A DNA stretch of 64,000 nt from a virus (Duplodnaviria > Heunggongvirae > Uroviricota > Caudoviricetes): positions 142,435-206,434 of IMG/VR virus record IMGVR_UViG_3300033076_001232, one strand, 5' to 3'. A program made the position numbers and the translations under genes. The notes under the pieces were generated by a model. It worked only from the letters and a program-made list of their open reading frames with translations, had not been told where the DNA came from and did not search any database. This document shows, one piece after another, positions 3,243-62,727 of the stretch. Within the stretch, counting starts at the first letter, position 1; each line of letters opens with the position of its first letter.

Positions 3243-3245
3243 TAG

Positions 3246-4340: not shown

Positions 4341-4347
4341 TAAAAAA

Positions 4348-4369: not shown

Positions 4370-4435
4370 ATGAGATAAATTTTTTAATCCCGCGACCAAA
4401 ATTTACATTTAGGTCAAATTACTAAAAATAACACT

Positions 4436-8318: not shown

Positions 8319-8505
8319 TGTCATGAATGGGGACGAAAAGAAAATATACGACCGTGCACTCATAAAATATTCTATGATTGTAAGATGCGGTGGAAATTCC
8401 ATAGAGGAAATTAAAGAATGTATCGAGATCTTCGAAGAATTTGAAGATTATGAAAAATGTGCAGATTTACTCGAAATTTTAAAAGCCTATGAGTCTAAAA
8501 AATGA
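8287..8505 (+). CDS. Small acidic protein, UVR-like C-terminal motif (paralog 2; alternative start 8323)
   Basis: FEEFEDYEKCADLLEIL motif. Confidence 0.45.
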   Translation: MISRNLLQNANVMNGDEKKIYDRALIKYSMIVRCGGNSIEEIKECIEIFEEFEDYEKCADLLEILKAYESKK

Positions 8506-8526
8506 GTAGAGAAGAAAGTAAAAATA

Positions 8527-8760
8527 GTGAAGACGATAAATAGGCAAGTTTTTGAGAATGCTTTAAAAAGCATGGAGATATATGGTCTGGATGGAATGAA
8601 ATCCCCTAGAATATTATCTAAAAGAAATCTCATTAGAGAATCACTAATTAAATATTATGAATCCACTGAGGAATTTGAAAAATGCAAATTCATAGTAGGA
8701 TTTTTCGAGGATTTGGAAAAAAATATTTCCGAGACAAAATCCACCAGGAAAAAGCAATAA
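8527..8760 (+). CDS. Small acidic protein, UVR-like motif (paralog 3)
   Basis: TEEFEKCKFIVGFFEDL motif. Confidence 0.45.
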   Translation: MKTINRQVFENALKSMEIYGLDGMKSPRILSKRNLIRESLIKYYESTEEFEKCKFIVGFFEDLEKNISETKSTRKKQ

Positions 8761-8840
8761 TAGGTTCCACGATTTTGGTGTTTTTGAAACCTTTAGTTAC
8801 ATATAAGGTATAATTAACATCAAAAACAAACAAATAATTA

Positions 8841-10415
8841 ATGAAGTTTTCAGAATTATCTCCGGATCAAATTTATGAGATTTCCAGAATATACTGGGAT
8901 CGAAAAATGGGATGGGATGACAGAATGGAAGCTCTCAGTGAATACCTAGGTAAATCAGAAAGAACCGTCCAGAAATGGATATCCAAGTTAGGTATTACCG
9001 AGAAATCTATTCAGGAATCTCCACAGCTAATTAGAGCTAAAGAAAAGAAATTTAATAAAAGAAAAAAGAGATTCATTGTTACATGGGCTCAGAACGATAC
9101 TCCAGTTCACGAGAACTTCATCTGTAACATTGAGGCATATGCGAATCATATCAATGCAGATATTCACGTTATAGCAGGAAGGTACAAGAATCCAACCTCA
9201 GTGTTTACAGACAAGAAATATGAGCAATGGTCAGATCGGATTATAAAGTACTTGGATGCTAACCGTCACGAAATCCACAAGTATATGTGGATAATGTCAG
9301 ACGTAAAAATCCAACCGACGGCAGTTGATCCTATGACAGGATTACAGGGAATGACCGGTATTAATTCCTGTATTTTTGGATCCCCCAAAGTTCAGTTGGA
9401 AACAATCCCAGTACTGGAGGGGAATTTACCGAAAATAATGATGACCACTGGAGCCTGTACGGTCAAGAACTATACAGATTCTAAATCTGGTAAAAAGGGA
9501 GAATTCCATCACACATTAGGTTTTGTCGTAGTAGAAATAAAAGACGATGAAACCTTTTTTGCTAGACAGGTGACCGCAAATGATTCTGGTGATTTTACTG
9601 ATCTTTATTACAAAGTTGAGTATGATCCTGACGAGGATCAAAGTAAAGTAGATAAGATCAACAGAATATCTGCAGCTATCTTAGGAGACGTTCACTATGG
9701 ACAGCATGACGAGGAGGTTTTAAATAAAACCCTAGAGATGTTTAAAAACATCAATCCAGATTATGTTGTTTTACATGATGTTTTCGATGGATTATCTATA
9801 AACCACCACGAGTCCAACGATCCATTTGTTCAATACAAGAGAGAGATGGAGGGAACAAACTCCCTTAGAAATGAGATCGATGCGATGTTAAATGGATTGG
9901 AGGTATTCAAGGATTATAAAACTGTAATAGTTAGAAGTAATCACGATGATTTCTTGGATCGATGGTTAAAGAATACTGATTGGAGAAAAGCTACCACCAT
10001 GAAGAACTCTATTGAATATATGGAGTTCAGTACCCTGCTATTAAAAGGAGAAGCACCGAAAGGGATTATACCTTATCTCATTAATCAGAAATTTCCAGAA
10101 TTTGTTACGCTAGGACGCAGTGATAGCTTTGTAGTTAGAGATTGGGAACTTGGACAACATGGAGATATTGGGTCCAATGGTGCAAGAGGATCTCTGTTAC
10201 AATTTAGAAAGCTTAATAGAAAATTGGTTGTTGGTCATTATCATTCACCGGGTAGGAAAGATGGAGCTTTGGCAGTTGGAACATCAACTAAACTTAGAGT
10301 TAATTATAACCTAGGACCAAGCGGTTGGCTACATTCTCACGTTATTATACATGATGATGGAAAAGCTCAGCATATCAATTTTATAAAAGGTGACTTCACA
10401 ACACTAAAACCATAA
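8841..10415 (+). CDS. HTH-containing protein fused to calcineurin-like metallophosphoesterase domain
   Basis: N-terminal SERTVQKWISKLGI HTH-like; C-terminal GDVHYG, VLHDVFDG, SNHD, GHYH motifs. Confidence 0.55.
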   Translation: MKFSELSPDQIYEISRIYWDRKMGWDDRMEALSEYLGKSERTVQKWISKLGITEKSIQESPQLIRAKEKKFNKRKKRFIVTWAQNDTPVHENFICNIEAYANHINADIHVIAGRYKNPTSVFTDKKYEQWSDRIIKYLDANRHEIHKYMWIMSDVKIQPTAVDPMTGLQGMTGINSCIFGSPKVQLETIPVLEGNLPKIMMTTGACTVKNYTDSKSGKKGEFHHTLGFVVVEIKDDETFFARQVTANDSGDFTDLYYKVEYDPDEDQSKVDKINRISAAILGDVHYGQHDEEVLNKTLEMFKNINPDYVVLHDVFDGLSINHHESNDPFVQYKREMEGTNSLRNEIDAMLNGLEVFKDYKTVIVRSNHDDFLDRWLKNTDWRKATTMKNSIEYMEFSTLLLKGEAPKGIIPYLINQKFPEFVTLGRSDSFVVRDWELGQHGDIGSNGARGSLLQFRKLNRKLVVGHYHSPGRKDGALAVGTSTKLRVNYNLGPSGWLHSHVIIHDDGKAQHINFIKGDFTTLKP

Positions 10416-21425: not shown

Positions 21426-22391
21426 ATGGCAGAAATACTAAATCTGGTAAATCCGAAAGATAGCTTATCCTTTAAATATGAGATAAGCAGGTTCCCTGAC
21501 GGCCAGCAATCATTAAGACTGATTGAGGATGGTTACAACACATTCAATTCACTAAAGAATGCGGCGATCAAAATAAAGTCAAGACTAAACAATTTCCAGG
21601 ATTTGGAAATTATCATTTGCGCAACACAAGCTCTTAGGGAGGTTGGAGTGAATGATATCAGTCTTTACATTCCTTATTGTGTTGGTGCTAGAAGCGACCG
21701 AAAATTTTCAGAGGGTGGAATCAATTATGTTAAGACGGTGATTGCACCTATTATCAATTCACAGGGCTACTCGAGTGTCACAATACTTGATCCACATTCT
21801 GATGTGCTTGAGGCTTGCATTAACAATTTCAAAAAGATAAACAATTTCAATTTAGTCAATTTTTCTTTGAAAGAAATCCTACTTGAAGATTGGAGAAAAA
21901 CTTCGGACGATATTGGTTTCGAAGGGTGGTACAAATACGACTGGCTAAAGAACCCGGACATTGTCCTAGTTTCACCCGATGCAGGTGCTTATAAGAAAAT
22001 TTTTGATGTTGCAGAAAATTTCAGAATTAAGAGCATAGCAACAGCGGTCAAAGTTCGAGATTTGGAAACTGGAAAGATCCTGAGAACGGAGGTTCCAAAT
22101 TTACCCATTAGCACAACAGGAAAAGAATTTAGGTATGTAATTATCGATGACATTTGTGATGGCGGTAGAACATTCATTGAATTGGCAAAAGCGATCAAAG
22201 CTAGTCGCCCAACTGCTGAGATCTATTTAGTGGTCACTCATGGAATCTTCAGTGCTGGGTATGCTGAATTAGGAAAATATTTTAATGGAATCTATTGTAC
22301 AAACTCGGTAAAGGACATCGTACACGATCCAGAAGACACCGACCTCGAAAGAGAAATGAAGGAAAAAGTAAAACAATTAAACGTATTCTAA
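21426..22391 (+). CDS. Ribose-phosphate pyrophosphokinase-family protein (Prs-like; possibly ADPR-pyrophosphate synthase type)
   Basis: FPDGQ, IPYCVGARSDRK (cf. IPYFGYARQDRR), ILDPHS, VSPDAGA, VIIDDICDGGRTF PRPP-binding loop. Confidence 0.7.
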   Translation: MAEILNLVNPKDSLSFKYEISRFPDGQQSLRLIEDGYNTFNSLKNAAIKIKSRLNNFQDLEIIICATQALREVGVNDISLYIPYCVGARSDRKFSEGGINYVKTVIAPIINSQGYSSVTILDPHSDVLEACINNFKKINNFNLVNFSLKEILLEDWRKTSDDIGFEGWYKYDWLKNPDIVLVSPDAGAYKKIFDVAENFRIKSIATAVKVRDLETGKILRTEVPNLPISTTGKEFRYVIIDDICDGGRTFIELAKAIKASRPTAEIYLVVTHGIFSAGYAELGKYFNGIYCTNSVKDIVHDPEDTDLEREMKEKVKQLNVF

Positions 22392-29448: not shown

Positions 29449-31020
29449 ATGAAAGGAATAAACCCAGCCCTTCTAACCGACGGTTATAAAACAGGGCACC
29501 ATCAGCAATACCCGGAGGGAACAACTCTAGTGTATTCTAACTTTACCCCAAGAAGTAACAAGTATGCACCTAAGGGATGCGATCATGTTGTTTCTTTTGG
29601 TCAGCAACTTATCATGAAGCAGATTCACGAGAGCTTCCAAAAAGATTTCTTCGATCAGCCTAAAGATGAGGTGTGCTCGGAAATTAAGAGAGAGCTTTCT
29701 CTTTATCTAGGAGTCGATTACGATGTTAGTCACTTCGAAGCCCTTCACGATCTTGGATATTTACCTATTAAGGTTAAAGCAATCAAAGAGGGAACTTTAG
29801 TGCCAATCAAGGTTCCTGTCTTGACTATCTATAATACGGATCCCAACTTTTACTGGGTAACCAACTATTTGGAAACACTAATCTCAAATCTTCTTTGGAA
29901 GCCAATGACTTCCGCAACAATTGCTTACCAATACAAGAGAGTTCTTACCGATTGGGCTCTTAAAACCGACAAGGAAAACAAAACATTTGTTCAGTGGCAA
30001 GGTCACGATTTCTCTATGAGAGGTATGGATTCAGTGGATGCTGTAATTTCTTCCGGTCTTGGACACCTAACATCTTTTACTGGAACAGATTCCCTTCCTG
30101 CAATTTACGGAGCTCGTAAGTATTACGGAGCGGAAGGATTTGTCGCAGCGTCAGTGCCAGCAACAGAACACTCGGTAATGTGTGCTGGCGGGAAAGAGGA
30201 TGAGATTGAGACATTCCGAAGACTGATTAAGACTTACCCTGCTGGTATCTTGTCAGTAGTATCTGATACTTGGGATTTGTGGAAAGTGTGTACGGAGCAT
30301 GTGGTTACTTTGAAAGAAGAGATTTTGGCTCGTGATGGTAAGTTGGTTATTCGTCCTGATAGTGGTGACCCGGTTGATATCCTTTGCGGTACAGAAGATT
30401 ATACAAAATCTAAATTACCTTATGATGAGGTTAAAGATGTAGAAGTTATGCACCCTAGCCAAAAAGGTGTAATTGAACTTCTTTGGGATGTATTTGGAGG
30501 AACTGTTAACGAACAAGGTTACAAAGTACTTGATCCACATATCGGAGCAATCTATGGCGATAGCATTACTATCGATCGTGCTGAGCAAATCTGCAGCAGA
30601 TTAGCTTCAAAGGGATTTGCATCAACAAACGTAGTGCTTGGGGTAGGATCTTTCACTTACCAGTACAACACCCGCGATACATTTGGTTTTGCAATGAAGG
30701 CAACTTATGTTGAGGTTAAGGTTCCTAAATATGGTGATTTTGCGGACCAAGGGTTGAATACCGAAATTGAAGGTAGAGAAATCTTCAAAGATCCAATCAC
30801 CGATGATGGAACGAAGAAATCTGCAACTGGCTTACTAAGCGTAGTTAGCCGTCCAGGTGAAGGTTTAACCCTAGTTGATAAGTGCGACTGGAAACATGAA
30901 AATGTCGGAGCATTGGAAACAATCTACCACGACGGAAAATCTAGCTCCGAGATCACTCTTTCTGAAATTAGAAACAATCTTGAATTTTCTTTGATTAAAG
31001 AGAGAGAAATTATTTTTTAA
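29449..31020 (+). CDS. Nicotinamide phosphoribosyltransferase-family protein (NAMPT/NadV-like; possibly Namat-type)
   Basis: VPATEHSVM, SFTGTDS, IRPDSGDPV motifs conserved with NAMPT. Confidence 0.7.
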   Translation: MKGINPALLTDGYKTGHHQQYPEGTTLVYSNFTPRSNKYAPKGCDHVVSFGQQLIMKQIHESFQKDFFDQPKDEVCSEIKRELSLYLGVDYDVSHFEALHDLGYLPIKVKAIKEGTLVPIKVPVLTIYNTDPNFYWVTNYLETLISNLLWKPMTSATIAYQYKRVLTDWALKTDKENKTFVQWQGHDFSMRGMDSVDAVISSGLGHLTSFTGTDSLPAIYGARKYYGAEGFVAASVPATEHSVMCAGGKEDEIETFRRLIKTYPAGILSVVSDTWDLWKVCTEHVVTLKEEILARDGKLVIRPDSGDPVDILCGTEDYTKSKLPYDEVKDVEVMHPSQKGVIELLWDVFGGTVNEQGYKVLDPHIGAIYGDSITIDRAEQICSRLASKGFASTNVVLGVGSFTYQYNTRDTFGFAMKATYVEVKVPKYGDFADQGLNTEIEGREIFKDPITDDGTKKSATGLLSVVSRPGEGLTLVDKCDWKHENVGALETIYHDGKSSSEITLSEIRNNLEFSLIKEREIIF

Positions 31021-42691: not shown

Positions 42692-43597
42692 ATGAAAAAT
42701 CTTATAAATTTCGAATCCTGGATTTCTTTGAATGAAGCTATAGTGATGCCTCCGGAAATATACGGAGTAGATCCAGACAAATATGGGGAAACTATAGGAA
42801 TTATTGACAAGACAGCCAAAAATTATAAGATAAATGATCTGAATTTACCACCAGAGAAACCAATTGGTGATATAGCTAAGTCTGCATGGGCTAATTTAAA
42901 TGTACCAACTCGAGCAATTTCAAATACGGAAGGGGGAAATTTAGGTTGCGCTGCAGCAACTTCCATTATGTTCTATAGAGCAACTGGTCTTCCGATCGTT
43001 AAGGAGTACTCAAAAAATCCAATAGTTCTTGGAACCTCTGCACTTTGGAGCGCATTTACAGGGAAGGATAAGGATAGATGGGAAATTATTAAAAATTGGA
43101 GAACTGACTATAAGCCGGGTGACATAATATTAACAAGTAGAGGTCCAGGTGGAGCCGGACACGTTGGTGTGGTTGTTGAAGACGGGAAGATAATATCAAA
43201 TTCGTCAGGAGGATTTAACGGAGATAAGAAGGGCCAAATTGAGCTAAATTATGATATAAAATCCTGGGAAAGTATTGCCAAGAAAAATCCAACACAAACA
43301 GCTTGTTTCAGATACAAAGGGGACTATTTGGACAAATGGGGAGGATCTCCTATTATGACCCCAATAGGGACCAATGATTCCGATGCTAATAAGAAATCAG
43401 AGGAACTTCCTAATTCTGTAATTAAATACAATGAAATTCTATATCTAAAACCACTGGATGCAAAAGAAATGTATTCAGTTCTAGGCGATCAGAGAACCAT
43501 GGATAAGTTAATTATCAAATCCGTTGAGAATGAGGAACCTGCTAAAAAGAAAAGAATTCTAGGATTAATCAAATCCAAAAAATATAGCGATAAATAA
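42692..43597 (+). CDS. CHAP/NlpC-P60-like cysteine peptidase domain protein (cell-wall hydrolase candidate)
   Basis: Cys in GNLGCAAATS and His in GAGHVGVVVEDG with CHAP-like spacing. Confidence 0.5.
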   Translation: MKNLINFESWISLNEAIVMPPEIYGVDPDKYGETIGIIDKTAKNYKINDLNLPPEKPIGDIAKSAWANLNVPTRAISNTEGGNLGCAAATSIMFYRATGLPIVKEYSKNPIVLGTSALWSAFTGKDKDRWEIIKNWRTDYKPGDIILTSRGPGGAGHVGVVVEDGKIISNSSGGFNGDKKGQIELNYDIKSWESIAKKNPTQTACFRYKGDYLDKWGGSPIMTPIGTNDSDANKKSEELPNSVIKYNEILYLKPLDAKEMYSVLGDQRTMDKLIIKSVENEEPAKKKRILGLIKSKKYSDK

Positions 43598-43653: not shown

Positions 43654-44016
43654 ATGAGAAAAATTAAGATTCTTTACGATTTTCTTAGATTGTGGATTAT
43701 GTGGGGAGATAGGAAGGAAGCATGGCAAGACGCAAATTCTATAAACGATCCTAATTTCCAGAAAGAACTGGAAGAGATATCCAATAAGTTAGATCAGGTT
43801 CTCTTAGAAAAGAATCCAAATTTTAAAGAAGTCTGTCTTGAGATATCTCAAAGACTTTCCAATTTACCTTACGATAATGGAGACATATCAGACATCGGTA
43901 ACGAGATAGGTATTGTTCTGGGTAAACATATCCAGGATGGGTCTTTCGGATGGGAAAGAGGAGATTTAAATTCTGGACTAAATCATGGTATATCAATAGC
44001 TAATGGAACACACTAA
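43654..44016 (+). CDS. Hypothetical protein
   Basis: ORF track. Confidence 0.4.
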   Translation: MRKIKILYDFLRLWIMWGDRKEAWQDANSINDPNFQKELEEISNKLDQVLLEKNPNFKEVCLEISQRLSNLPYDNGDISDIGNEIGIVLGKHIQDGSFGWERGDLNSGLNHGISIANGTH

Positions 44017-45163
44017 GAATATGAATAACATAGACAAGCAGTACTTAGATCTACTCCAGGATATATTGGACAATGGAGTAGAAAAAAGAGATAGAACCGG
44101 AACGGGGACTATCTCAGTTTTTGGTAGACAGATAAGACATAAGATGTCGGAAGGATTTCCTTTGCTTACGACGAAGAAGATGTACTGGAAAGGAATCGTA
44201 ACCGAGCTACTTTGGTTTTTAAGAGGTGATACCAATATTAAATTCTTGGTCGATAACAACTGCCACATCTGGGACGGCGACGCATACAAGAACTATCAGA
44301 GCAAACAAAAGAAACCTAAGGTCGGAGACTGGGAAAATTACATAGATTGCTACTGTGGACATACCGATACATGTTCTTGCGGAATTATGTCAAAGACAGA
44401 ATTTATAGAAAAAATTAAATCAAGCAAAGTGTTCTCAGATAAATGGGGAGAGCTCGGTCCTATTTATGGAAAGCAGTGGAGATCATTCGGTCCATCTGAC
44501 GAATACTATAATGGAACAGAGTGGGTTTATATAAGCCCAATAGATCAGATAGCTAAAGCTATAGAAATGATAAAGGAGGATCCAGATTCTAGAAGAATTA
44601 TGGTTACCGCATGGAATCCCTCAGATTTGCCTAAATCTGTACTCCCACCTTGCCATTATGGATTTCAATTTTATACAAGAGAGTTGAGCGATGAAGAAAG
44701 AGTAAAGTTATATGAACAAAAAACAAACACAGATACTTCATTCTTTCCAGTACTTACAGAAACCTTAGCTTTCCATAATATACCAACCAGAGCAATCTCT
44801 TTAATGTATAATGCCAGAAGTCAAGATGTTCCTCTAGGAACACCGTTTAATATAGCTTCATATGCTCTTCTTCTTTCGATAATTGCAGAAATAACTAACA
44901 CTGTACCGGAAGAAGTTATAGCTAACATGGGGGATTGTCACATCTATCTAAATCAGATAGATGGCATAAAGGAACAGATAAGCAGGTCTCCAAAAGAGTT
45001 GCCTCAATTGCAGATCAACAAGGAACCATTTGACAATTATCTTTTCGCCTCACATTCAGAAAAAACGTCAATCAATCATTTAATTAACGATTTGAAGCCG
45101 GAACACTTTAATATTTCGGGATATGATCCACATCCAACGATAAAGATTCCATTGAGTAATTAA
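44003..45163 (+). CDS. thyA: Thymidylate synthase (ThyA) with two internal insertions
   Basis: DRTGTGT, LLWFLRGDTN, DLGPIYGKQWR, DPDSRRIMVTAWN, PPCHYGFQFY, PFNIASYALL, GDCHIYLNQ, YDPHP all in ThyA order; ~45-aa Cys-rich insert and ~30-aa insert. Confidence 0.85.
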   Translation: MEHTKNMNNIDKQYLDLLQDILDNGVEKRDRTGTGTISVFGRQIRHKMSEGFPLLTTKKMYWKGIVTELLWFLRGDTNIKFLVDNNCHIWDGDAYKNYQSKQKKPKVGDWENYIDCYCGHTDTCSCGIMSKTEFIEKIKSSKVFSDKWGELGPIYGKQWRSFGPSDEYYNGTEWVYISPIDQIAKAIEMIKEDPDSRRIMVTAWNPSDLPKSVLPPCHYGFQFYTRELSDEERVKLYEQKTNTDTSFFPVLTETLAFHNIPTRAISLMYNARSQDVPLGTPFNIASYALLLSIIAEITNTVPEEVIANMGDCHIYLNQIDGIKEQISRSPKELPQLQINKEPFDNYLFASHSEKTSINHLINDLKPEHFNISGYDPHPTIKIPLSN

Positions 45164-48575: not shown

Positions 48576-49445
48576 ATGAAAGATGCACTAGGCGACAGAA
48601 TGAAGGACTTTTACGAAGACCGAACACGTTACAAGTTGGCACGTCGCACCAACACGATTATCCGCATTGACGGAAAAGCTTTCCACACTTACACAAAGGG
48701 TTTAAAGAGACCTTTTGATGAAGGTTTAATGGAGGACATGAATAAGACAACTGAGTTTCTATGTCAGAATATTCAAGGAGCAAAATTTGGATACGTTCAA
48801 TCAGATGAGATTTCTATTCTCATCACTGATTACGATGATATGAGTACACACGCTTGGTTTGATGGTAACCTACAAAAGATGTCATCCATTGCTGCATCAT
48901 TGACAACTGCAAAGTTTAACCAATTAAGAATGGCAAGATTCTGTAGGAATGAAGGAATCGAGCCAAAGTATAGAGAAGATTCTTACATCAGTAACTCTCA
49001 AATCGGGGATTTCAAACTTGCAATGTTTGATGCACGTGTTTTTCAGATTCCTTACCAAGAAGAAGTGATTAACTACTTTATCTGGAGACAGCAAGATGCT
49101 ACAAGGAATTCTATCTCTTCTGTTGCCCAATCTTACTTCTCACCAAAAGAACTCCATGGTAAGAAAACAAGTGAAATGCAGGACCTGTTAATGTTACAAA
49201 AGAATATTAACTGGAACGATTTTACCCCAAGGGAGAAGAGAGGATCATTGATTAGAAAAGTTGAGAAAAAATTTGTTAGAACTAATCCTATCGACGACGG
49301 TAAGACCTATCCAATTGACACGAACCAAACTTATACAAGAAATGTTTGGGAAGCTGATGTAGAGACTCCAATCTTTTCCCAAGAAAAGGGATATCTTCGT
49401 TGGCTAATGCCACAAACACAGGACGACAAAACTCCAATCTTGTAA
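48576..49445 (+). CDS. Thg1-like protein (tRNA-His guanylyltransferase family, 3'-5' nucleotidyl transferase)
   Basis: IIRIDGKAFHTY, GYVQSDEISILI, WRQQDA align with Thg1 VVRLDGRNFHRF / GQSDEYS / WRQAD. Confidence 0.7.
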   Translation: MKDALGDRMKDFYEDRTRYKLARRTNTIIRIDGKAFHTYTKGLKRPFDEGLMEDMNKTTEFLCQNIQGAKFGYVQSDEISILITDYDDMSTHAWFDGNLQKMSSIAASLTTAKFNQLRMARFCRNEGIEPKYREDSYISNSQIGDFKLAMFDARVFQIPYQEEVINYFIWRQQDATRNSISSVAQSYFSPKELHGKKTSEMQDLLMLQKNINWNDFTPREKRGSLIRKVEKKFVRTNPIDDGKTYPIDTNQTYTRNVWEADVETPIFSQEKGYLRWLMPQTQDDKTPIL

Positions 49446-49447
49446 TT

Positions 49448-50083
49448 GTGAAAGTTATATTTTTAGATATCGATGGAGTAATGAACTCCCAAGTTTTCTA
49501 TAAAGAAAGATACGATCGAAGATGGAGGAAACCAATAACTTATTGGTTCGAGTTGAGAAGATTGTTTAGAAAGGCTTTTGGAATAAAACCGAAAGCCACT
49601 TCTATGGCCGATTATGTTATCCCCGATTCACACTTTGAATTTGATTATCAATTTGAAAGATTGAAAGAGGAAACCTGCAAAGAAAAATGGGGATGGCTTA
49701 GTGAATGGTGTAACGAAACTGGAACTAAGATATGTGTTTCATCAACATGGAAAAATCACTTCGGAACTAAAGAATATGTTTCGACCCCTGAAAAATGGGA
49801 AGATGCTCTTCAACTTTTAGGATTTCTACCAGGAACATTTGTCGGAGTTACTGGAAATAGAAGGAACATAAGGGGCGAAGAAATTGCCGAATGGTTAGAA
49901 CAAAATCCCAACGTGGAAGATTATGCAATTTTAGATGATGACTCAGATATGTTACCCGAGCAATTTAAGAAATTCCACCATTGCGACAGCTGGTTTGGAC
50001 TATCTCCAAATCATCTCTACCGAATAGATAGACAGTTTGAAGGTAAGTCTAACTACGAAAAACTAACAAAAACAATAATATGA
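49448..50083 (+). CDS. HAD-superfamily phosphatase (RNA-repair-associated HAD type), paralog A; GTG start
   Basis: MKVIFLDIDGV motif I; start chosen by identity with paralog B 5' end. Confidence 0.55.
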   Translation: MKVIFLDIDGVMNSQVFYKERYDRRWRKPITYWFELRRLFRKAFGIKPKATSMADYVIPDSHFEFDYQFERLKEETCKEKWGWLSEWCNETGTKICVSSTWKNHFGTKEYVSTPEKWEDALQLLGFLPGTFVGVTGNRRNIRGEEIAEWLEQNPNVEDYAILDDDSDMLPEQFKKFHHCDSWFGLSPNHLYRIDRQFEGKSNYEKLTKTII

Positions 50084-50301
50084 GAGCGGAAGAAGCAAGA
50101 AAAATAGCGGAACAATTCACACCAGATGTAAAGGAAGTTCTTGAAATAGTAAAGAAAGAAGCAACGAATGGTGGATTATCCACTTCAGGAGCCTCAAGGT
50201 TTCTTTTTAACGAGAGGGTAAGAAAATATCTCGAAAAATTAGGTTACCGGATAAAATTTGTGGAGGCTCAGAGAGACGGATACTGGGAAATTAGCTGGTA
50301 A
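50080..50301 (+). CDS. Small hypothetical protein
   Basis: ATGA overlap. Confidence 0.4.
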   Translation: MRAEEARKIAEQFTPDVKEVLEIVKKEATNGGLSTSGASRFLFNERVRKYLEKLGYRIKFVEAQRDGYWEISW

Positions 50302-50302
50302 G

Positions 50303-50848
50303 ATGAAAGTTATATTTTTAGATCACGATGGCGTGATATGTCTTGCCGACCAATGGGGAGGAAGATACAAGAAGAAGGGATACGATAGTAATCCAGAAAC
50401 ACCCATGGATATCAGAATGGATAGCTTTGATAAAAAAGCTGTTAATGTACTAAACAAGATCATAGATAAAAGTGGGTGCGAGATAGTTATCTCGTCGGAC
50501 TGGAAAAGATGGGGAACTTTGGAGCAGATTCAGGAAATGTATCGAACCAGGGGAATAAAAGAACCCATTGGACTAACCCCATTTTTCTCGGATCTTCTAA
50601 AAGAAAGAAAGGTTCCTATGGCAGCAGAGTTTACCATGAGGGATTCTTTAGAAATTGAGAGGCACTATGAAATATTAGATTGGCTGAAGAATCACCCTGA
50701 GGTAACCCATTGGGTCTCGGTAGATGATCTTGATATGTCTAAGAGAGATTGGTGGGGGTTAGAAAATTTTGTTCTGTGTAAAAGACCACATAGAGAAGGG
50801 ATAAAACAGTGTGGACTTAAGGATAAAATACTAGAGTATCTACTCTGA
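50303..50848 (+). CDS. HAD-superfamily phosphatase, paralog B
   Basis: MKVIFLDHDGV motif I, ISSDWK motif II-like. Confidence 0.55.
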   Translation: MKVIFLDHDGVICLADQWGGRYKKKGYDSNPETPMDIRMDSFDKKAVNVLNKIIDKSGCEIVISSDWKRWGTLEQIQEMYRTRGIKEPIGLTPFFSDLLKERKVPMAAEFTMRDSLEIERHYEILDWLKNHPEVTHWVSVDDLDMSKRDWWGLENFVLCKRPHREGIKQCGLKDKILEYLL

Positions 50849-50887
50849 TATCATATATGAATAGTATCAGGGGAGATATATAATAGT

Positions 50888-52408
50888 ATGGAAAATATCA
50901 TACCTTTTAGCACATACTCATCTTTAAACGAGTCAGTAGATCCAAATGCTACTAATATCATTATAGGTGATTCTCAATCACCTCTGATGGCTTTAAATAT
51001 CAAGAACGCAAGTCTTATTTCTAAACAACAGGGGGAATCTTCTCTATGGAAAGGAGGAATGGGCGTAAAATGGTTAAAGGATGCGGTTTCAAAGTATCCA
51101 GTTTCACCAAGAATACAAAACGTTGTGATCAACATTGGTACAAATGGAGGATTTAACAAGAGAGATGATATTAAAGGTCTATACGATCAACTAAAAAGAG
51201 CATTTCCTAACGCTAGATTTTTACAATTACAAGGAACATGGGGATGGGGTGGTAATAAAAACGTAACCGAATCCCAGGTTAAAGATTATTACAAGGAGTT
51301 CGAAAAACAGGGAGCAATAATAGTTTATCCTGCTAAGGGATACGTAGCAACAGATAGAGAAGCACATACAAATAGACCGATTCTAGCCAAACTTGGTGCT
51401 GAGGTTGATAGATTGATAAATACCCCAGGCAAATCTGTATCTTCTGCGGTTTCATATTCATCAACATCGAGCAGTCAATCAACAAACACACAGCAATATT
51501 CAGCTGGGTCATCTAATGTTATTGGAGGTATAATTTCTAGACCCGGTGATCCCTACAAATACAAGGTAGAGAATGATCACTGGATGGCTAAAAGGGACGA
51601 TCACACCCGATGGTACGAAATTACAGGTAAGGACTTCAAACCTGGATACCAGGTGTCTATAGATATTTTAGATACCGAGAACCCAAATGCAAGGACAGAA
51701 AAAGCTCCAAAAAGAACCGTTAAGAATAACGGAGGTAATGTTAACAATGGTGGTAATGTTAACAATGGTGGTAATATTAATAATGGAGGTGGTAGCGAAG
51801 AGGATAACATAGATCAGGTTCTTCTTCCTTTTGGAAAGGGTGCGGATCCAGAAAAATTAGATCCTAAAATATCTAAAGAATTTAATTTTCATCTTATCCC
51901 GGATGGGAAAGATACCAACTATAGAAGTGCTCAGCTCCCTATGAAACACCTGAAAGACATGTACATCAAATACGGAGTTAAGAGAGTAATTAGATTAAAC
52001 GGGGACGGGAAAGATGCTAAGCATCATCTACTTAATAAGCCAGTAACTATCCAACAAGAAAGAGATCTATGTAAAGAGATCGGATGTGAATTTCATAAGT
52101 TATCAGCAACTAAGGATCAGGAAAAAATAAATCAGTTACTTGCACAGGGAAATACTCTCATCCACTGTGCTCACGGAGCAGACAGAACAGGAGGAACAGT
52201 TGGTGGGTATTTCTATGATACGAAGGTTAATCCGAGTCTAACTACAACTGATGCAATATGGAAGTACACTACCCAATATAATAACTGGAACTCTATGGCT
52301 AAGAATAGACCAAAGAAATTTGCAGATGGTGGTTACTTAACATTGGCTCAAAAATTTGGAGTGGCCGATCTAGAAACAGCAAACAAATTAGCAAAAAAAT
52401 ACAAATAA
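50888..52408 (+). CDS. Fusion protein: N-terminal SGNH/GDSL-like hydrolase, G/N-rich repeat linker, C-terminal cysteine phosphatase (HCxxGxxR; RNA 5'-phosphatase/PTP-like)
   Basis: IIIGDSQS block I; NNGGNVNNGGNVNNGGNINNGGG linker; LIHCAHGADRTGG P-loop. Confidence 0.55.
   Translation: MENIIPFSTYSSLNESVDPNATNIIIGDSQSPLMALNIKNASLISKQQGESSLWKGGMGVKWLKDAVSKYPVSPRIQNVVINIGTNGGFNKRDDIKGLYDQLKRAFPNARFLQLQGTWGWGGNKNVTESQVKDYYKEFEKQGAIIVYPAKGYVATDREAHTNRPILAKLGAEVDRLINTPGKSVSSAVSYSSTSSSQSTNTQQYSAGSSNVIGGIISRPGDPYKYKVENDHWMAKRDDHTRWYEITGKDFKPGYQVSIDILDTENPNARTEKAPKRTVKNNGGNVNNGGNVNNGGNINNGGGSEEDNIDQVLLPFGKGADPEKLDPKISKEFNFHLIPDGKDTNYRSAQLPMKHLKDMYIKYGVKRVIRLNGDGKDAKHHLLNKPVTIQQERDLCKEIGCEFHKLSATKDQEKINQLLAQGNTLIHCAHGADRTGGTVGGYFYDTKVNPSLTTTDAIWKYTTQYNNWNSMAKNRPKKFADGGYLTLAQKFGVADLETANKLAKKYK
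51731..51793 (+). repeat. 18-nt tandem repeat (ggtggtaatgttaacaat x ~3.5) encoding GGNVNN units
   Basis: Direct reading of sequence. Confidence 0.9.
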
Positions 52409-52409
52409 A

Positions 52410-52697
52410 ATGAAAGTAGAAGTTATCGATTTTTACGCCGATTGGTGTAATCCTTGCAAGGCTATGAGTCCTGCAATTCAAGCACTCCAAGAAGAGTTTC
52501 CGGAAGGAAATGAATCGGGTGTTACAATCACAAAAATTAATGTGGATTCAAATCCAGAAGAAGCAAAGAAATACAATATTAGATCTATCCCAACACTAGT
52601 TTTTTTAAAGGAGGGAATAGAGAGCGAGAGAGCATCTGGTGCTAAAACTAAAGATTTTATCAAGGAAAGAATCAATGAGATTATTTTAAACAACTAA
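52410..52697 (+). CDS. Thioredoxin
   Basis: YADWCNPCK (CxxC) active site; ~95 aa. Confidence 0.8.
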   Translation: MKVEVIDFYADWCNPCKAMSPAIQALQEEFPEGNESGVTITKINVDSNPEEAKKYNIRSIPTLVFLKEGIESERASGAKTKDFIKERINEIILNN

Positions 52698-52717
52698 GAG
52701 ATATTTCACAATATTAT

Positions 52718-52756
52718 AATCCCGGAGTTATTAACAACTTCGGGATTTTTTTTTGG
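52718..52756 (+). terminator. Rho-independent terminator
   Basis: 10-bp stem aatcccggag/cttcgggatt (one G-U), T9. Confidence 0.7.
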
Positions 52757-52838
52757 TTTTTTTCTTAAATTCTTAAACTTTTCCAAAACCTTTGCATATA
52801 AACTAGTATAAAATAAAAACAAAAAAAAAACAAAAATT

Positions 52839-53312
52839 ATGGAAAACTTAAAAGCTATTGCAGAACTGGCTAACGCCTTAAAAAATGACATTCGTGTAAA
52901 ATCGTGGATTGCTCCAAACCAGCCTCTTTTCGTGAATAGCGAGGAGAACAGCGATATGTTCTTAACAACTTATCGAATAAGAAACTCATATGAGATACTT
53001 TTAAATAAGCTGGATCTATATGAGGAGATTACTGATGAGAAAGATATGGTTCTTATAAATCGATTATTCGAAATGGATTTTTATCCTCCTAGAAAAATGA
53101 GTCTTAGCGATTGGAAGAACGGAAGAGATCCAATCGTCAGAGTTACAAAGGCATATAAGGATTTAAGATGGAAGGGAAACCGAAGAAGGAGATATGAAAT
53201 TACTTTAGAATTAGATAACGGAAAAAAACATCAGATAAATCCAAATAATGTTTTAAATAAGTTCTTATCCATTAGAAAATCGTTACCTGCATTAGCAGAT
53301 TCAAACCTATAA
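52839..53312 (+). CDS. Hypothetical protein
   Basis: ORF track. Confidence 0.45.
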   Translation: MENLKAIAELANALKNDIRVKSWIAPNQPLFVNSEENSDMFLTTYRIRNSYEILLNKLDLYEEITDEKDMVLINRLFEMDFYPPRKMSLSDWKNGRDPIVRVTKAYKDLRWKGNRRRRYEITLELDNGKKHQINPNNVLNKFLSIRKSLPALADSNL

Positions 53313-53316
53313 AAAA

Positions 53317-53342
53317 GGAGACCTTTGGGTCTCCTTTTTTTT
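53317..53342. terminator. Bidirectional rho-independent terminator between convergent genes
   Basis: stem ggagacc/ggtctcc, loop tttg, A-run before and T-run after. Confidence 0.8.
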
Positions 53343-53481
53343 ATTTACCTTGTCCTCTATATCCTTTTACATACTTCTTAGACCTCTTATTGCTAGAGGT
53401 CTTACTTTTAGCGTGACGATCACATGAATTTCTGTTTTTCTTAACGAAATTGTTAGATGCTTGTACTTTTGCCTTTGCCAT
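53341..53481 (-). CDS. Very basic 46-aa protein (MAKAKVQASNNFVKKNRNS...)
   Basis: Gap-filling minus-strand ORF downstream of 53498 gene; K/R-rich. Confidence 0.3.
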   Translation of the reverse strand: MAKAKVQASNNFVKKNRNSCDRHAKSKTSSNKRSKKYVKGYRGQGK

Positions 53482-53497
53482 TGTTATTAAGGTTATT

Positions 53498-54106
53498 TTA
53501 GATTATATCTGTTGACTCCAACAGAGTGTACGAGAAAGCATTCCCGTGTATTTTAGCAGCCTTCTTACAGATAGCCATAAATTGATCGAAATCTTTGACT
53601 CTTTTAAAGACCTGACATCCTTCGCTCCAATTTTCTACCCATGCTGAATCGGTTCCAGCCTTATGAATATTAATACCAAACATTCCTGTGTCTGTTACCT
53701 TTTCTTCGAAAAGTAGGTCTCTGTTCTTGTCTCTCCATACCGTTACGTTTCCGTTTCTTTGACATAGAGCTTCATACTTACCCTGGTGTTTGTCAATCTT
53801 CCAAACTCCTCTATATTGTCCTGGCACCAATCTAGCTACACCTTTATTGTTATGGAACTCCATAACACCTTTTTTACCCGGATCGCAAGTACCAGCCCAA
53901 CAAAAGAATTGCCAGTTACCAGATTCATCTTTGTATGATATAGTTAAGTGATCGTCGAAAACGTTTGTAACTTTGTCTGCGACACTAGGAGCATTATTTC
54001 TTACCCCAACAATGTTTACATCATAGGTTTTATTAGAAGAATCGTCAAACCATTTGTAACCTTTACTTGTAACAGCCTTTTCAATCTGTTCTCTTGTGTA
54101 ACTCAT
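53498..54106 (-). CDS. YkuD-like (L,D-transpeptidase fold) protein; cell-wall peptidase candidate
   Basis: H(x16)SEGCQV resembling YkuD H..S.GC.R catalytic arrangement. Confidence 0.35.
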   Translation of the reverse strand: MSYTREQIEKAVTSKGYKWFDDSSNKTYDVNIVGVRNNAPSVADKVTNVFDDHLTISYKDESGNWQFFCWAGTCDPGKKGVMEFHNNKGVARLVPGQYRGVWKIDKHQGKYEALCQRNGNVTVWRDKNRDLLFEEKVTDTGMFGINIHKAGTDSAWVENWSEGCQVFKRVKDFDQFMAICKKAAKIHGNAFSYTLLESTDII

Positions 54107-59926: not shown

Positions 59927-61849
59927 TTATTTTTGTTTTATTATTCTCAATCCCTCCGATTGATTCTGTGATTGAAGCGTTGCAATATAAATTCCCGATG
60001 CAAGATTTTGTATGTTAGAATAGTAAGTGTAATTTCCAGCTGGCATATTCTTTTCTAATATGATATGTTCAATAGAACCTTGAGAGTTCATAACGTATAT
60101 TTTTACGTTACCTGATTCTTTAACCGTAAAGTTGATGTAAAATTCTCCGGTTGTTGGGTTAGGATAAACTAAAGCCTTATCTGTACCATTCTCTATGGTT
60201 GCCATCTTGGCTACTATAAGTATACCATTCGTTGGAGTTATTGACATATCCTTGGATGCTAAATCCCCCGAGAATTTCCTCGTAGTGTATAGAGGAGAAG
60301 TTTCCCATTCTCCCTGTGGTTTCTTGGCAACGAATTTTAGAGTAAATACGTTATAGTTATCGGGTATCATATATTTCTTATCTGCAGATGGATCATATCC
60401 TGTCCATTCCACTATCCCATCCATTGGATTGATTGAAGAAATCCAAAACATAGATTTATCTGAATTCTGTAATTCCTTGAATTCAAGAAGATCTTCATCG
60501 TAAATCATACCCAGTTGGAGGGATGAGAGCATCTCACCGTTTGTTTTAACTGTAATAGGAAGTTCAACTAGATTGCCCTCGTTTACTTTTATAGTTGGCA
60601 TATTAACCTCCATAGTTTTTGTAGGAAAGTCGTATTCGACGTTCATATCGATTACATTTTCCATTGCTGATGGATAATTGGGATCAGGGTTAGGTAATAT
60701 GGTGATTGGTGTCATACGTGCCATATGATAACCAGTTGCGTTAGCGTCACCAGGAACAAGTACATAGAAAGTAACCGAATCTGGTTGGCCAGGTAGGATG
60801 TTATAGTAGAAGTTTGTTGTTCCTGCTATGGTAGAAGTGTAGTTAGTAGATGGAGATCCTGTAATTGTGTTATATTCTGATACGGTAAAGAATTTAACAT
60901 CTTTAACGTTGTTTGGCCAGAATGAGAATCTCCCCGATATTCTACCGAAAACTCCATAAGCGTCAGTGATAGTTAGATTGTTTGATCCATTAACGTCACC
61001 AGTATAAAAGTCCCATCCAGTAGGAGTAGCACCTCCTAGAATCCATTGATTTATTAATTGAGCATCTGCTGACGAAATAACGTTACCCACTCCCATTGTA
61101 TCACCTTTAATAGCTAAGCGTACATCATAGTATGTGGTATCAATTATTTCACTGAATGAGAAATCTCCATTTATGTCAGTAAGATAAGTTGCATGTTGAG
61201 ACCAAACTGAACCAGTTTTAACTTTTTTCTCTAAAGCGAGAGGTAAGTTTTTTGCTGGTGATCCTGTTACGTTGGTAAACGTACCATGGAAATCTAAATT
61301 AGGCTGATCCCATGCACCGCCGTAGCTGTATAGTGTTAAAGTGGTATCTGTTCCTGGTTGTGATGCAGCGTACTGATTATAAACCTGTGCACCCGTCCAT
61401 TTTAAAGAATCGATTGATGGTAGGGCGTAGAAAGATGCAGCTTGAACGTGGTTAAATGTTACCAAGAATCTTTCGCCGTCTGGTATAGTATATGTTGCGC
61501 TACTCCCGGTATAAACAAGAGTAATTGTTACATTTCCATTCACGTTGTTGTCTAAGAATTGTAAATCCAAATTGGAAGGAGATCCAATTAGAGAGACAGA
61601 TGCCGAAGAGAAAGCGTTTTTATCATAGAAAACTCTAAATTGGACACCAGTATACTTAGTAGCAGTGGTGTTCTTTAAAGTTATTCTAGCCTGAGATTGG
61701 TTTTGGGTAAAAGTACCTAATTGATAAGTGGTATCAATTAGGGCATAAATTCCATTTCCTGGTGCAGGCGGACCTGACTGCGCGAAGATGGTATTCACCG
61801 AAATTGAAAGCAAGCTTAGTAGCAATGCTAAGATAAAATTGTTTTTCAT
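59927..61849 (-). CDS. Secreted protein with type IX secretion system (T9SS) type-A C-terminal sorting domain
   Basis: Signal peptide; C-terminal LVYPNPTTGEFYINF..VKIYVMNSQG..GNYTYYSNIQNLASGIYIATLQS..RIIKQK matches Por_Secre_tail pattern. Confidence 0.7.
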   Translation of the reverse strand: MKNNFILALLLSLLSISVNTIFAQSGPPAPGNGIYALIDTTYQLGTFTQNQSQARITLKNTTATKYTGVQFRVFYDKNAFSSASVSLIGSPSNLDLQFLDNNVNGNVTITLVYTGSSATYTIPDGERFLVTFNHVQAASFYALPSIDSLKWTGAQVYNQYAASQPGTDTTLTLYSYGGAWDQPNLDFHGTFTNVTGSPAKNLPLALEKKVKTGSVWSQHATYLTDINGDFSFSEIIDTTYYDVRLAIKGDTMGVGNVISSADAQLINQWILGGATPTGWDFYTGDVNGSNNLTITDAYGVFGRISGRFSFWPNNVKDVKFFTVSEYNTITGSPSTNYTSTIAGTTNFYYNILPGQPDSVTFYVLVPGDANATGYHMARMTPITILPNPDPNYPSAMENVIDMNVEYDFPTKTMEVNMPTIKVNEGNLVELPITVKTNGEMLSSLQLGMIYDEDLLEFKELQNSDKSMFWISSINPMDGIVEWTGYDPSADKKYMIPDNYNVFTLKFVAKKPQGEWETSPLYTTRKFSGDLASKDMSITPTNGILIVAKMATIENGTDKALVYPNPTTGEFYINFTVKESGNVKIYVMNSQGSIEHIILEKNMPAGNYTYYSNIQNLASGIYIATLQSQNQSEGLRIIKQK

Positions 61850-61896: not shown

Positions 61897-62727
61897 CTAC
61901 ACGGAGGTAAGAGCTTTATAGTATTCTTTGAAGTGTTTGATTCTATCAGCTAGACCTATAGTTCCTCCATTTACTCTTTTAGTAACTGCGGTAACAGTAG
62001 CATCATCTGCACCTCTATCGCATATTGACCACAATTTGTTTGAATCGAAGAAAAATGCTGCAGAAGCCAGAGGATATTTCGTTGCAACTAAATCCGGATT
62101 TGCCACACAATCTTCTCCAATGAACTTAGTAAAGTTAGTGTAGTTTGATTTTCCAGTTAATTGAATATAACCTCTACCTCTAAATTTGAAACCTTCTTTA
62201 GAAGCTTCGTCTCCATTACCCATTCTTGATGCGTAAACCCTGGATGCAATCTTCTCAGGTTGACGAGCATAAGATTCATTTAGATTTCCAGGAAAGTACT
62301 TACCGAATATCTTTTTCAAACCATCAGCAGAATAATTTAGGTTTTCTGTAACTGCCTTAAATCCTCCTGATTCGTGACCGCACTGCGCTAAAAAGTGGGC
62401 TAGTCTTAGGTTATTAGTGATGTTGAATTTTTTTGCAGTGTCTGGGATTTGTGCTAAAACTGCATCAGGAACGTGTCCTCTCAGACCTTCTAAATTTAAA
62501 TTTTCCATCTTAGGTACTGCTACCGGAGCTGATGCAGGCGCAGATTCACCAAACATTTTACTCCAGGTTCCAGGTCCTACAACACCGTCGGCTGTTAAAC
62601 CATTAGCTGCCTGCCACTCTTTTACCTTAGCCTCCGTTCCCGCTCCAAATACTCCGTCTGCACTTAATCCTAGTTTTTGTTGAAGCTTTTTCACTTCTTC
62701 TCCATTGGATCCTTTCTTTAGTAACAT
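61897..62727 (-). CDS. Endolysin: two PG_binding_1 repeats + GH19 (chitinase-like lysozyme) catalytic domain
   Basis: LQQKLGLSADGVFGAGT / LTADGVVGPGT repeats; HFLAQCGHESGG and FRGRGYIQLTGKSNY GH19 motifs. Confidence 0.75.
   Translation of the reverse strand: MLLKKGSNGEEVKKLQQKLGLSADGVFGAGTEAKVKEWQAANGLTADGVVGPGTWSKMFGESAPASAPVAVPKMENLNLEGLRGHVPDAVLAQIPDTAKKFNITNNLRLAHFLAQCGHESGGFKAVTENLNYSADGLKKIFGKYFPGNLNESYARQPEKIASRVYASRMGNGDEASKEGFKFRGRGYIQLTGKSNYTNFTKFIGEDCVANPDLVATKYPLASAAFFFDSNKLWSICDRGADDATVTAVTKRVNGGTIGLADRIKHFKEYYKALTSV

Follow-up and report, generated by a model that had tools for sequence, protein, structure and literature searches.

A large-phage fusion of an SGNH-type hydrolase and a cysteine phosphatase, possibly directed at the host cell envelope

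The fusion protein and its modules

The DNA studied here was a 64,000-nucleotide stretch (the window; positions 142,435 to 206,434) of IMG/VR virus record IMGVR_UViG_3300033076_001232, which is an auxiliary-gene region of a large phage. On its plus strand, downstream of a Thg1-like gene and two HAD_SAK_2 genes, lies an open reading frame (ORF) for a fusion protein in which a predicted SGNH-type hydrolase and a predicted cysteine-based phosphatase are connected by disordered spacers and a small middle domain (Table 1). An earlier description made from the letters alone (the sequence-only reading) had proposed that this ORF joins an SGNH-like hydrolase, a glycine/asparagine (G/N) repeat linker and a cysteine phosphatase, the last of which it likened to RNA 5'-triphosphatases.

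Comparison of the fusion protein with 120 homologs, by BLASTP and phmmer, mapped three independently mobile modules onto it, here called N (residues ~1-185), M (~212-280) and C (~319-506), with two disordered spacers between them. Two of its features had been overlooked in the sequence-only reading: the folded middle domain at residues ~212-280 and a conserved N-terminal leader at residues 1 to ~20. Because the N-M-C order recurred on many independent metagenomic contigs, in proteins of 44-93% identity, the proposed fusion is real, and an assembly or frameshift artefact was ruled out as its origin. Pseudo-enzyme status of the N and C modules was likewise ruled out, as their catalytic residues were invariant. 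Structure prediction and fold searches on the two halves returned no unrelated fold, the N-terminal half being assigned to the SGNH hydrolases and the C-terminal half to the dual-specificity phosphatases (DSPs) and protein tyrosine phosphatases (PTPs). Several searches were negative: the fusion protein had no match in PHROGs, phmmer of the single sequence had no match in the PDB, and among 50,697 GenBank phage records there was neither a megablast match to window positions 50000-53500 nor a tblastn homolog of the protein in cultured phages. An NCBIfam scan of the protein together with eight relatives and neighbours gave matches only to PG-binding/SleB-like models, on the homolog P0113.

The N module was modelled by AlphaFold2 (AF2) from family alignments with a predicted local distance difference test score (pLDDT) of 91-98 over residues 21-180, the first core strand starting at residue 22. 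The predicted fold is the three-layer, flavodoxin-like alpha/beta/alpha arrangement of the SGNH hydrolases. The top 13 Foldseek matches in the PDB were all SGNH/GDSL enzymes (best E 2.4e-4), and the structural neighbours included platelet-activating factor acetylhydrolase (PAF-AH), GDSL lipases, CE2/CE3/Axe2, the OatA C-domain and Ape1. The candidate catalytic residues are S29, in the GDS block IIIGDSQSP (residues 24-32, with G27-D28-S29 at nucleotides 50966-50974), G57, N86 (in GTNG) and H160. Conservation at these positions was almost complete across 228 relatives: G57, G84 and N86 were found in all of them, H160 in 225 and GDS in 225, the other three having gaps there. An acidic partner of H160 lies at His-2 (E-A-H in the fusion protein, D-P-H or E-P-H in most relatives) and not in the canonical D-x-x-H arrangement. 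These results upheld the earlier assignment of the N-terminus to the SGNH hydrolases. On the predicted structure the module is a divergent, unannotated family within that superfamily: residues 1-200 had no Pfam match even at E<=10, no PHROG or NCBIfam model matched the N module, and its best profile match in the PDB (CE2, E 0.036) was confined to block III.

The SGNH domains of Ape1, OatA and PatB have the fold and the Ser-His(-acid) centre in common with the N module, and their target is the 6-O-acetyl group of N-acetylmuramic acid (PMC6174289). The OatA C-domain is of the same compact size and gave the highest target-normalised TM-scores (0.58-0.60). These enzymes were not, however, the top matches by E-value, and the two Ape1 entries (8gld and 4k3u) stood at places 40 and 50 of the Foldseek list, their TM-scores being 0.2-0.27. 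The N module also differs from them in its acid at His-2. It had no inserted carbohydrate-binding module (CBM) of the Ape1 type, and neither patA nor patB was found among the called neighbours. We therefore do not claim membership of the Ape1 family; an Ape1-like function is possible by analogy.

The C module was modelled at a pLDDT of 91.4 with a DSP/PTP fold, an alpha/beta arrangement that places the P-loop between the central strand and a helix. Its P-loop lies in the stretch IHCAHGADRTGG (residues 425-436, H426 beginning at nucleotide 52163) and it also carries an NYRSAQ motif at residues 344-349. All 197 relatives examined kept H426, C427, G430, R433, T434 and G435, and HC[AHT]HGADRTG was nearly invariant; the same was true in 197/197 of N344, R346, R369, E391, D432, W458 and W467, and in 196/197 of D376. 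Invariant W, Y and F residues were present in the C-terminal extension of the phosphatase. The Foldseek list was headed by TpbA, LSF2, Siw14, VHZ, Cdc14 and PTPMT1, and the profile search against the PDB placed TpbA first (E 0.0057) in an alignment spanning the YRSAxP motif and the P-loop. The fusion protein itself scored below the Pfam cutoffs, with 16.9 bits for Y_phosphatase3 (cutoff 22.2) and 12.7 bits for DSPc (cutoff 33.5). The Y_phosphatase3 cutoff was passed by the homologs P0042 (25.1) and P0044 (22.5), and several members had precomputed PF00782 or PF13350 matches. The fold search, the profile match and the P-loop together confirmed that the C-terminus is a cysteine-based phosphatase of the DSP/PTP fold. 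As modelled, it is an atypical DSP of generic type whose closest neighbours are Siw14, VHZ, periplasmic TpbA, PTPMT1 and the glucan phosphatases.

Among these nearest relatives TpbA is periplasmic, and Siw14, PTPMT1, laforin, LSF2 and SEX4 are DSPs that act on substrates other than proteins. TpbA (PA3885 of P. aeruginosa, PDB 4r0s/2m3v), a periplasmic dual-specificity phosphatase (PMC4409338), has in common with the C module the DSP fold, YRSAxP and the HC-x-H-G-x-x-R-T-G P-loop, but it is a single domain with a Sec signal and a protein substrate, and the two are only 15-18% identical. The phage module differs from it further in an aromatic-rich C-terminal extension of ~50 residues, in the additional invariants N344, R346, R369, D376, E391 and D432, and in being fused to SGNH, M or peptidoglycan-binding modules. 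Outside the P-loop, Siw14/PFA-DSP, PTPMT1, laforin, SEX4 and LSF2 showed no significant sequence similarity to the C module; all are enzymes of the eukaryotic cytosol or organelles, and no link to peptidoglycan-binding or SGNH domains is known for any of them.

The M module, a beta-hairpin and a helix, was modelled at a pLDDT of 87-96 (strands 223-228 and 231-236, helix 252-264). It was found after N or before C, each independently of the other, and its invariant residues are D, Y, W, W, LD, P, R and P. It had no Pfam match, and the M-domain profile had no match in the PDB. The linker that follows contains the 18-nt repeat reported in the sequence-only reading; Tandem Repeats Finder (TRF) confirmed that the repeat is present and in frame, encoding GGNVNN GGNVNN GGNINN GG at residues 283-302, and set its limits slightly inside those given earlier (51731-51793). 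The linker is hypervariable. Homologs 83-93% identical to the fusion protein carried other low-complexity runs in its place (GGS, DNQN or TN/TS repeats), and the linkers of P0002 and P0012 differed by exactly one DNQN unit, which bore out the expected variation in repeat number. Its low pLDDT and its variation among such close homologs both support the proposal that it is a flexible and slippage-prone tract.

Table 1. Features of the fusion gene and of selected other genes in the window (residue numbers refer to the fusion protein)
Feature	Position	Strand	Remarks
Whole ORF	50888..52408	+	506 aa, ATG start; leader, N, S/T-rich spacer, M, G/N repeat linker, C
N-terminal leader MENIIPFSTYSSLNESVDPN, aa 1-20	50888..50947	+	motif aromatic-xx-aromatic...[LI]-x-E-[SAG]; outside SGNH core
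N module, compact SGNH/GDSL-fold hydrolase (predicted), aa ~21-182	50948..51433	+	AF2, Foldseek, conservation
Ser/Thr/Gln-rich spacer, aa 183-211	51434..51520	+	pLDDT <50, predicted disordered
M module, beta-hairpin + helix, aa ~212-280 (…GDPYKYKVENDHWMAKR…WYEITG…SIDILDTENP…APKR)	51521..51727	+	AF2
G/N linker, aa ~281-318	51728-51841	+	pLDDT <50
18-nt tandem repeat, 3.2 copies, in disordered linker	51734..51790	+	TRF score 93, 92% matches
C module, atypical dual-specificity (Cys-based) phosphatase (predicted), aromatic-rich C-terminal helical extension	51842..52405	+	model, Foldseek, profile
P-loop HCAHGADRTGG, aa 426-436, catalytic Cys427 and Arg433	52163..52195	+	sequence reading
Second leader-bearing ORF (MKNLINFESWISLNEA), CHAP-like (peptidoglycan amidase/peptidase) body	42692..43597	+	regex scan of window
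Thg1-like gene	48576-49445	+	upstream of fusion gene
Two paralogous HAD_SAK_2 genes	49400-50083 and 50258-50848	+	directly upstream of fusion gene; 73-aa ORF between
Thioredoxin gene	52410-52697	+	immediately downstream of fusion gene
Endolysin-like gene (phrog_3000 / phrog_33083)	53498..54106	-	PHROGs match

Fusion partners, gene neighbourhoods and the leader

Profile searches (E<=1e-3, counted as cluster representatives) recovered 646 N-module and 383 C-module proteins, almost all of them unannotated and seen only in uncultured phage-like contigs. The N-M-C order was present in P0001-P0034 and the reverse, C-N, in P0035-P0045 and P0067. This fusion in both orders links the two modules functionally and is strong evidence that they act together. 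Both modules were also joined to other domains. The N module followed Amidase_2 and PG_binding_1 (P0112-4), PG_binding_1 (P0115, P0256) or a SleB-type Hydrolase_2 (P0116), and preceded M and Beta-lactamase2 in P0065 and P0081. The C module was found between M and GDPD in P0083, and in P0044 an M15_4-like domain (weak match) and a PG_binding domain preceded C and N. A PG_binding_1-like segment lay directly upstream of C in seven of ten homologs tested and passed the curated cutoff in P0296. Among stand-alone proteins, 83/117 of the N type and 30/92 of the C type began with a single transmembrane (TM) anchor, and the stand-alone C proteins P0297 and P0337 had signal-peptide-like N-termini.

In a number of relatives (P0043-P0063, P0085/P0091/P0111/P0069 and P0038/P0104/P0105) unannotated modules replaced or preceded the phosphatase. 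One of these is a tail of ~190 residues (…LPIKLSGSYKVP…RQYFFKYSD) and another is alpha/beta-like with an LFS[AG]G motif, possibly a serine hydrolase. Neither had a Pfam match, and PDB searches with the 190-aa tail of P0046 and the 280-aa alpha/beta-like tail of P0085 found nothing.

The carrier is probably a large phage that infects marine Flavobacteriia. The A1-like 'DNA transfer' protein encoded in the window had its nearest relatives in phages of Maribacter, Cellulophaga and Flavobacterium, and a copy of the fusion protein with 83% identity was found on the 289,651-bp IMG/VR contig IMGVR_UViG_3300042558_003926. Genes for wall-degrading enzymes recurred around the modules. In the loci L012 and L013 a TM-anchored N gene lay inside a lysis cassette, with an SLT-type lytic transglycosylase, small TM (holin-like) ORFs, a two-TM ORF of 78 aa, a TM-DUF2272 protein and a GH19 muramidase as neighbours. 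The endolysin-like phrog_3000 gene near the fusion gene, which had no phmmer match in the PDB, also occurred near homologs of the fusion protein in L001-L004 and L008, and immediately upstream of an Amidase_2-PG_binding-N fusion in the unrelated locus L007. GH19+PG_binding endolysins were encoded nearby in the window, at 61897-62727, in L004 and in L009.

A thioredoxin gene stood directly 3' of the homolog of the fusion gene in every locus of the lineage (L001-L004, L008 and L009). A redox link between phosphatase and thioredoxin was considered and rejected: in L009 the thioredoxin gene follows an N+M protein in which the phosphatase has been replaced, and the adjacency is thus lineage synteny and not specific to the phosphatase.

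The leader of the fusion protein was modelled as a short helix of low confidence (pLDDT about 60). Leaders of 15-20 residues were common to family members whether N, M or an added enzyme domain came first, for example MENIIPFSTYSSLNES in the fusion protein, MGYLLNYSNWKNLSEG in an amidase fusion, and MKKIKNFSEFLNEG and MFNLLDFQSFSVLES in C-only proteins. A regular-expression scan of the window found just one other ORF with such a leader (42692-43597), the expected number of chance matches being 0.013 per ORF set, as estimated from shuffles. The two proteins are related through the leader only; the fusion protein begins MENIIPFSTYSSLNE|S, its leader ending in L-N-E at position 15, and the second ORF begins MKNLINFESWISLNE|A. 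The body of the latter is CHAP-like, with a Pfam CHAP match of E 6.8e-5 and 23.7 bits that falls below the cutoff of 26. An exhaustive search with this ORF showed that homologs of its N-terminal domain bear similar leaders, and that the CHAP-like domain also occurs at the C-terminus of virion or polyvalent-type proteins of 1,200-6,670 aa. BLASTP excluded homology between this ORF and the CHAP/NlpC-like leading segment of P0078. Two further recurrent leaders, 'MNLQENIxRIKxxMG' and 'MKIKITESQLKRxV', sometimes followed by a TM helix, were noted in P0086-P0110, P0202, P0208, P0234, P0242, P0282, P0346 and other homologs.

Short N-terminal segments of this general kind are known from phages. T4 has capsid-targeting propeptides of 10-20 residues, and in giant phages the paralogous ejection proteins share conserved N-termini that end in A/S-x-E (positions 12-15) and undergo cleavage after [LIAS]-x-E (PMC9958956, PMC5694885). 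The leader described here fits that pattern, being a short N-terminal segment that is carried by unrelated proteins of the same phage and ends in [LIAS]-x-E, as do the internal proteins of T4 and its Alt, with their capsid-targeting sequence (CTS), and the ejection proteins of phiKZ and SPN3US (at ~10-20). It differs from these propeptides in that the likeness is one of pattern and not of sequence homology. No head genes were found within the window.

Possible roles of the fusion protein

We lean, by a little, towards reading the fusion protein as a whole as a modular two-enzyme protein directed at the cell envelope. Because of the fusion partners and gene neighbourhoods of the two modules, we infer that both are active at the cell wall or envelope, together with muralytic enzymes. 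The particular substrates that we propose are a good deal more doubtful. The SGNH module would take O-acyl or O-acetyl groups off peptidoglycan or a different glycan of the envelope; O-acetylation at C6 of N-acetylmuramic acid blocks muramidases and lytic transglycosylases, and is removed by SGNH esterases such as Ape1 (PMC6174289). The phosphatase module would strip a phosphomonoester or a terminal pyrophosphate from a phosphorylated envelope glycan or lipid, which appears the most plausible activity because of the nearest structural relatives of the C module and its fusion to GDPD. The M domain and the linker may provide reach or binding, and the removal of acyl and phosphate decorations would aid the muralytic enzymes. 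Since the fusion protein lacks a signal peptide and a membrane anchor, it would have to gain access to the wall in another way, either passing through holin lesions when the cell lyses or travelling inside the virion until it is ejected at infection. The resemblance of the leader to capsid-targeting propeptides cleaved by a prohead protease makes us favour the virion route, though with little confidence.

Several observations weigh against this envelope reading. The fusion protein itself has no peptidoglycan-binding domain and no TM segment or signal peptide, so that its envelope role is deduced from homologs, and no phosphorylated target, in peptidoglycan or elsewhere in the envelope, is known to us from Flavobacteriia. 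Both folds, SGNH and DSP, are promiscuous, and in the Foldseek list of the N module PAF-AH and lipases outranked the peptidoglycan O-acetyl enzymes. The TM-anchored C module in L010 was not near lysis genes. The TM anchors of stand-alone homologs had more K/R on their C-terminal flank (+3.6 vs +2.0), and the catalytic domain could therefore lie on the cytoplasmic side. Between the leader and the T4 CTS there is no sequence identity. Finally, HAD_SAK_2, whose Pfam name refers to RNA repair, was a conserved upstream neighbour within the phage lineage (L001-3, L008 and L009).

This last adjacency keeps alive, at low probability, a model that builds on the likeness drawn in the sequence-only reading, namely that the C module is a metal-independent RNA 5'-tri- or diphosphatase of the BVP/PIR1/capping type, acting in the cytoplasm with Thg1 and HAD_SAK_2 in the repair or processing of RNA or tRNA 5'-ends, while the SGNH domain works on an RNA-linked ester, e.g. 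by deacylation. We consider it unlikely. BVP, PIR1/DUSP11 and the capping-enzyme triphosphatase are enzymes of the Cys-phosphatase fold, and their HCTHGxNRTG shares H-C-x-H-G-x-x-R-T-G with the phage HCAHGADRTGG; BVP (1yn9) was also among the best profile matches of the C module in the PDB (E 0.0098). That match, however, covered only 26 residues around the P-loop, BVP, capping enzyme and PIR1 ranked 25-36 by structure, and neither the sequence comparison nor the closest structures gave similarity to RNA 5'-triphosphatases beyond the P-loop. PTP-SAK (PF22784, gathering score 27 bits), the Pfam model of the phosphatase in 'Swiss Army Knife' RNA-repair proteins, had no match in the fusion protein, and its weak matches on homologs (13-16 bits, E 0.01-0.09) were far below the Pfam cutoff and always below Y_phosphatase3 and DSPc. 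The general acid of such phosphatases is expected in a D-loop ~25-35 residues upstream of the catalytic Cys, and no Asp was conserved at that distance. The Asp at Cys-17 (D410 in TKDQ) varied among relatives (D, N, H, S), as did the neighbouring K409 column, and the invariant acids were D376 (Cys-51) and E391 (Cys-36). RNA triphosphatases that cleave phosphoanhydrides likewise lack the D-loop Asp; its absence fits phosphoanhydride substrates of any sort and does not tell the models apart. As for the neighbours, the sequence-only reading was correct that the fusion gene lies downstream of the Thg1-like and HAD genes, but a functional link to Thg1 was not supported. The Thg1-like gene was present in the window and in L008 and was missing from L001-3, loci that are 85% identical and in other respects syntenic but retain only one HAD_SAK_2 gene, and a functional operon with Thg1 was accordingly rejected. 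A literature search linking 'Swiss army knife' RNA repair with Thg1 and HAD found nothing. A cytoplasmic RNA target of any kind also fits poorly with the partners of the family, which are envelope-directed and not RNA-related: for the C module the recurrent fusion partners were PG_binding_1, TM anchors, signal-peptide-like leaders and GDPD, and for the N module peptidoglycan hydrolases, whereas no RNA-binding, ligase, kinase or capping domain occurred in the more than 350 architectures listed.

The basic C-terminal flanks of the TM anchors, which by the positive-inside rule would leave the enzyme domain in the cytoplasm, are also what could be expected if the protein attacked lipid precursors from the cytoplasmic face, in the manner of a single-gene lysis protein or as part of host takeover, and so starved wall or envelope synthesis. 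The phosphatase would then act on undecaprenyl-(P)P, phosphatidylglycerophosphate or a lipid A precursor, and the SGNH module would deacylate a lipid or lipid-linked glycan. The lipid acylhydrolases at the head of the SGNH matches (PAF-AH, GDSL lipases), the similarity to PTPMT1 and Siw14 and the lack of an export signal all agree with such an attack. We nevertheless think it improbable, as the N-flanks of the anchors are positively charged too, leaving the topology ambiguous, and a place on the periplasmic or wall side is indicated by the fusions to PG_binding_1, Amidase_2, SleB and beta-lactamase-like domains as well as by the homologs with signal-peptide-like N-termini. It is also improbable, in our estimation, that the protein remodels the cell surface by stripping O-acetyl and phosphate groups from lipopolysaccharide (LPS), capsule or an anionic polysaccharide linked to the type IX secretion system (T9SS), with exposure of a receptor in the course of adsorption, or a block to superinfection once the phage has entered, as the outcome. 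Tailspike deacetylases of SGNH type that act on O-antigen or capsule are known in phages (PMC5380687), glucan phosphatases are close structural neighbours of the C module, whose extension carries the invariant aromatic residues, and an adjacent minus-strand block encodes lectin/LamG and Por_Secre_tail/cohesin domains, typical host-recognition modules. The fusion protein, however, has no tail-fibre or tailspike architecture (beta-helix, trimerisation domain), its relatives' fusion partners act on peptidoglycan and not on polysaccharides of the surface, and the N module in its anchored form occurs within a lysis cassette. The least credible of these readings, and in our view a very unlikely one, is that of a TpbA-like periplasmic protein phosphatase that rewires host signalling through pTyr or pSer on the periplasmic domain of, for instance, a diguanylate cyclase or a polysaccharide co-polymerase, with the SGNH domain as a passenger. 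TpbA, a periplasmic DUSP, was indeed the best sequence and Foldseek match, with both motifs in common (PMC4409338). Against this, its identity was low at an E-value of only 0.006, about 125 of 207 residues aligned, and it lacks the invariant aromatic extension; the obligate coupling to SGNH in both orders and the peptidoglycan-binding and GDPD fusions fit a polymer substrate better.

The cell-wall enzymes of phages are usually glycosidases, amidases and peptidases, more rarely esterases. If the envelope reading is correct, a conserved cysteine phosphatase wired to peptidoglycan-binding and muralytic partners would suggest that envelope phosphate, whether borne by a glycan, a lipid carrier or a protein, is a barrier or a signal for phages, and it would offer both new cell-wall biology and a new enzymatic activity for engineered lysins. 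Phage SGNH or deacetylase modules that act on the envelope, often with a second lytic domain, are known from phi11 Gp44 Tal and from the Vi-phage and c341 LPS deacetylases (PMC5380687), but these are tail or baseplate structural proteins and none has a phosphatase. The word 'phosphatase' is absent from that review of virion-associated lysins and tailspikes (PMC5380687), and our searches found neither a cell-wall phosphatase of this kind in the phage literature nor any report of a dual-specificity phosphatase in jumbo phages. The folds themselves are known; N and C as families, their fusion, the shared leader, and the recurrent linkage of a cysteine phosphatase to peptidoglycan-binding or muralytic domains in phages appear to be undescribed.

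A wider possibility, which we put forward tentatively as one that is probably not correct in full, is that large phages of Flavobacteriia and other aquatic bacteria carry an unrecognised, shuffled toolkit of envelope enzymes, whose soluble members are loaded into the virion by means of a common propeptide of 15-20 residues (aromatic-xx-aromatic...L-x-E|S/A) and ejected at infection. The modules of such a toolkit would be the minimal SGNH esterase, the DSP-type cysteine phosphatase, the CHAP-like peptidase and others. Were this so, the C module would be the first peptidoglycan-associated cysteine phosphatase, and it would imply that some constituent of the wall or envelope, or a lipid carrier, is phosphorylated and that taking off this phosphate is important for phage entry or lysis. 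Should the leader be a packaging signal, it would also offer a practical way to load cargo into the capsids of large phages in systems other than T4. As the N and C families are abundant and yet absent from Pfam, PHROGs, NCBIfam and the 50,697 GenBank phage records, giving them names would supply annotations for many genes of aquatic viromes that are now listed as 'hypothetical'.

Further features of the window and of related loci

The minus-strand block mentioned above contains a 640-aa protein (59927-61849) with cohesin and dockerin-like segments and a Por_Secre_tail domain for C-terminal sorting by the T9SS, and beside it a 559-aa protein with C-type lectin and LamG domains. The pair is probably a host-recognition module aimed at Bacteroidota. 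Upstream of the fusion gene, the listed TTG start of the first HAD_SAK_2 gene overlaps the end of the Thg1-like gene by 46 nt, because of which its true start is probably further downstream.

Elsewhere on the plus strand of the window, ARAGORN identified a phage-borne tmRNA gene at 3429-3918 with the tag peptide EEVELAVAA*. The thymidylate synthase encoded at 44003-45163 has 386 aa and aligned end to end with a 266-position profile, pointing to an insertion of ~120 aa. Two auxiliary genes of NAD salvage, for a ribose-phosphate pyrophosphokinase-like protein and a nicotinamide phosphoribosyltransferase, lie at 21426-22391 and 29449-31020.

Two of the related loci had features of their own. In L012 an IS605 OrfB/TnpB element (Cas12f1-like_TNB; 8259-9431, plus strand) directly follows the lysis cassette, and in L010 a 1,189-aa polyvalent protein with ART-PolyVal and NUDIX domains (1241-4810, minus strand) adjoins the TM-anchored stand-alone phosphatase.

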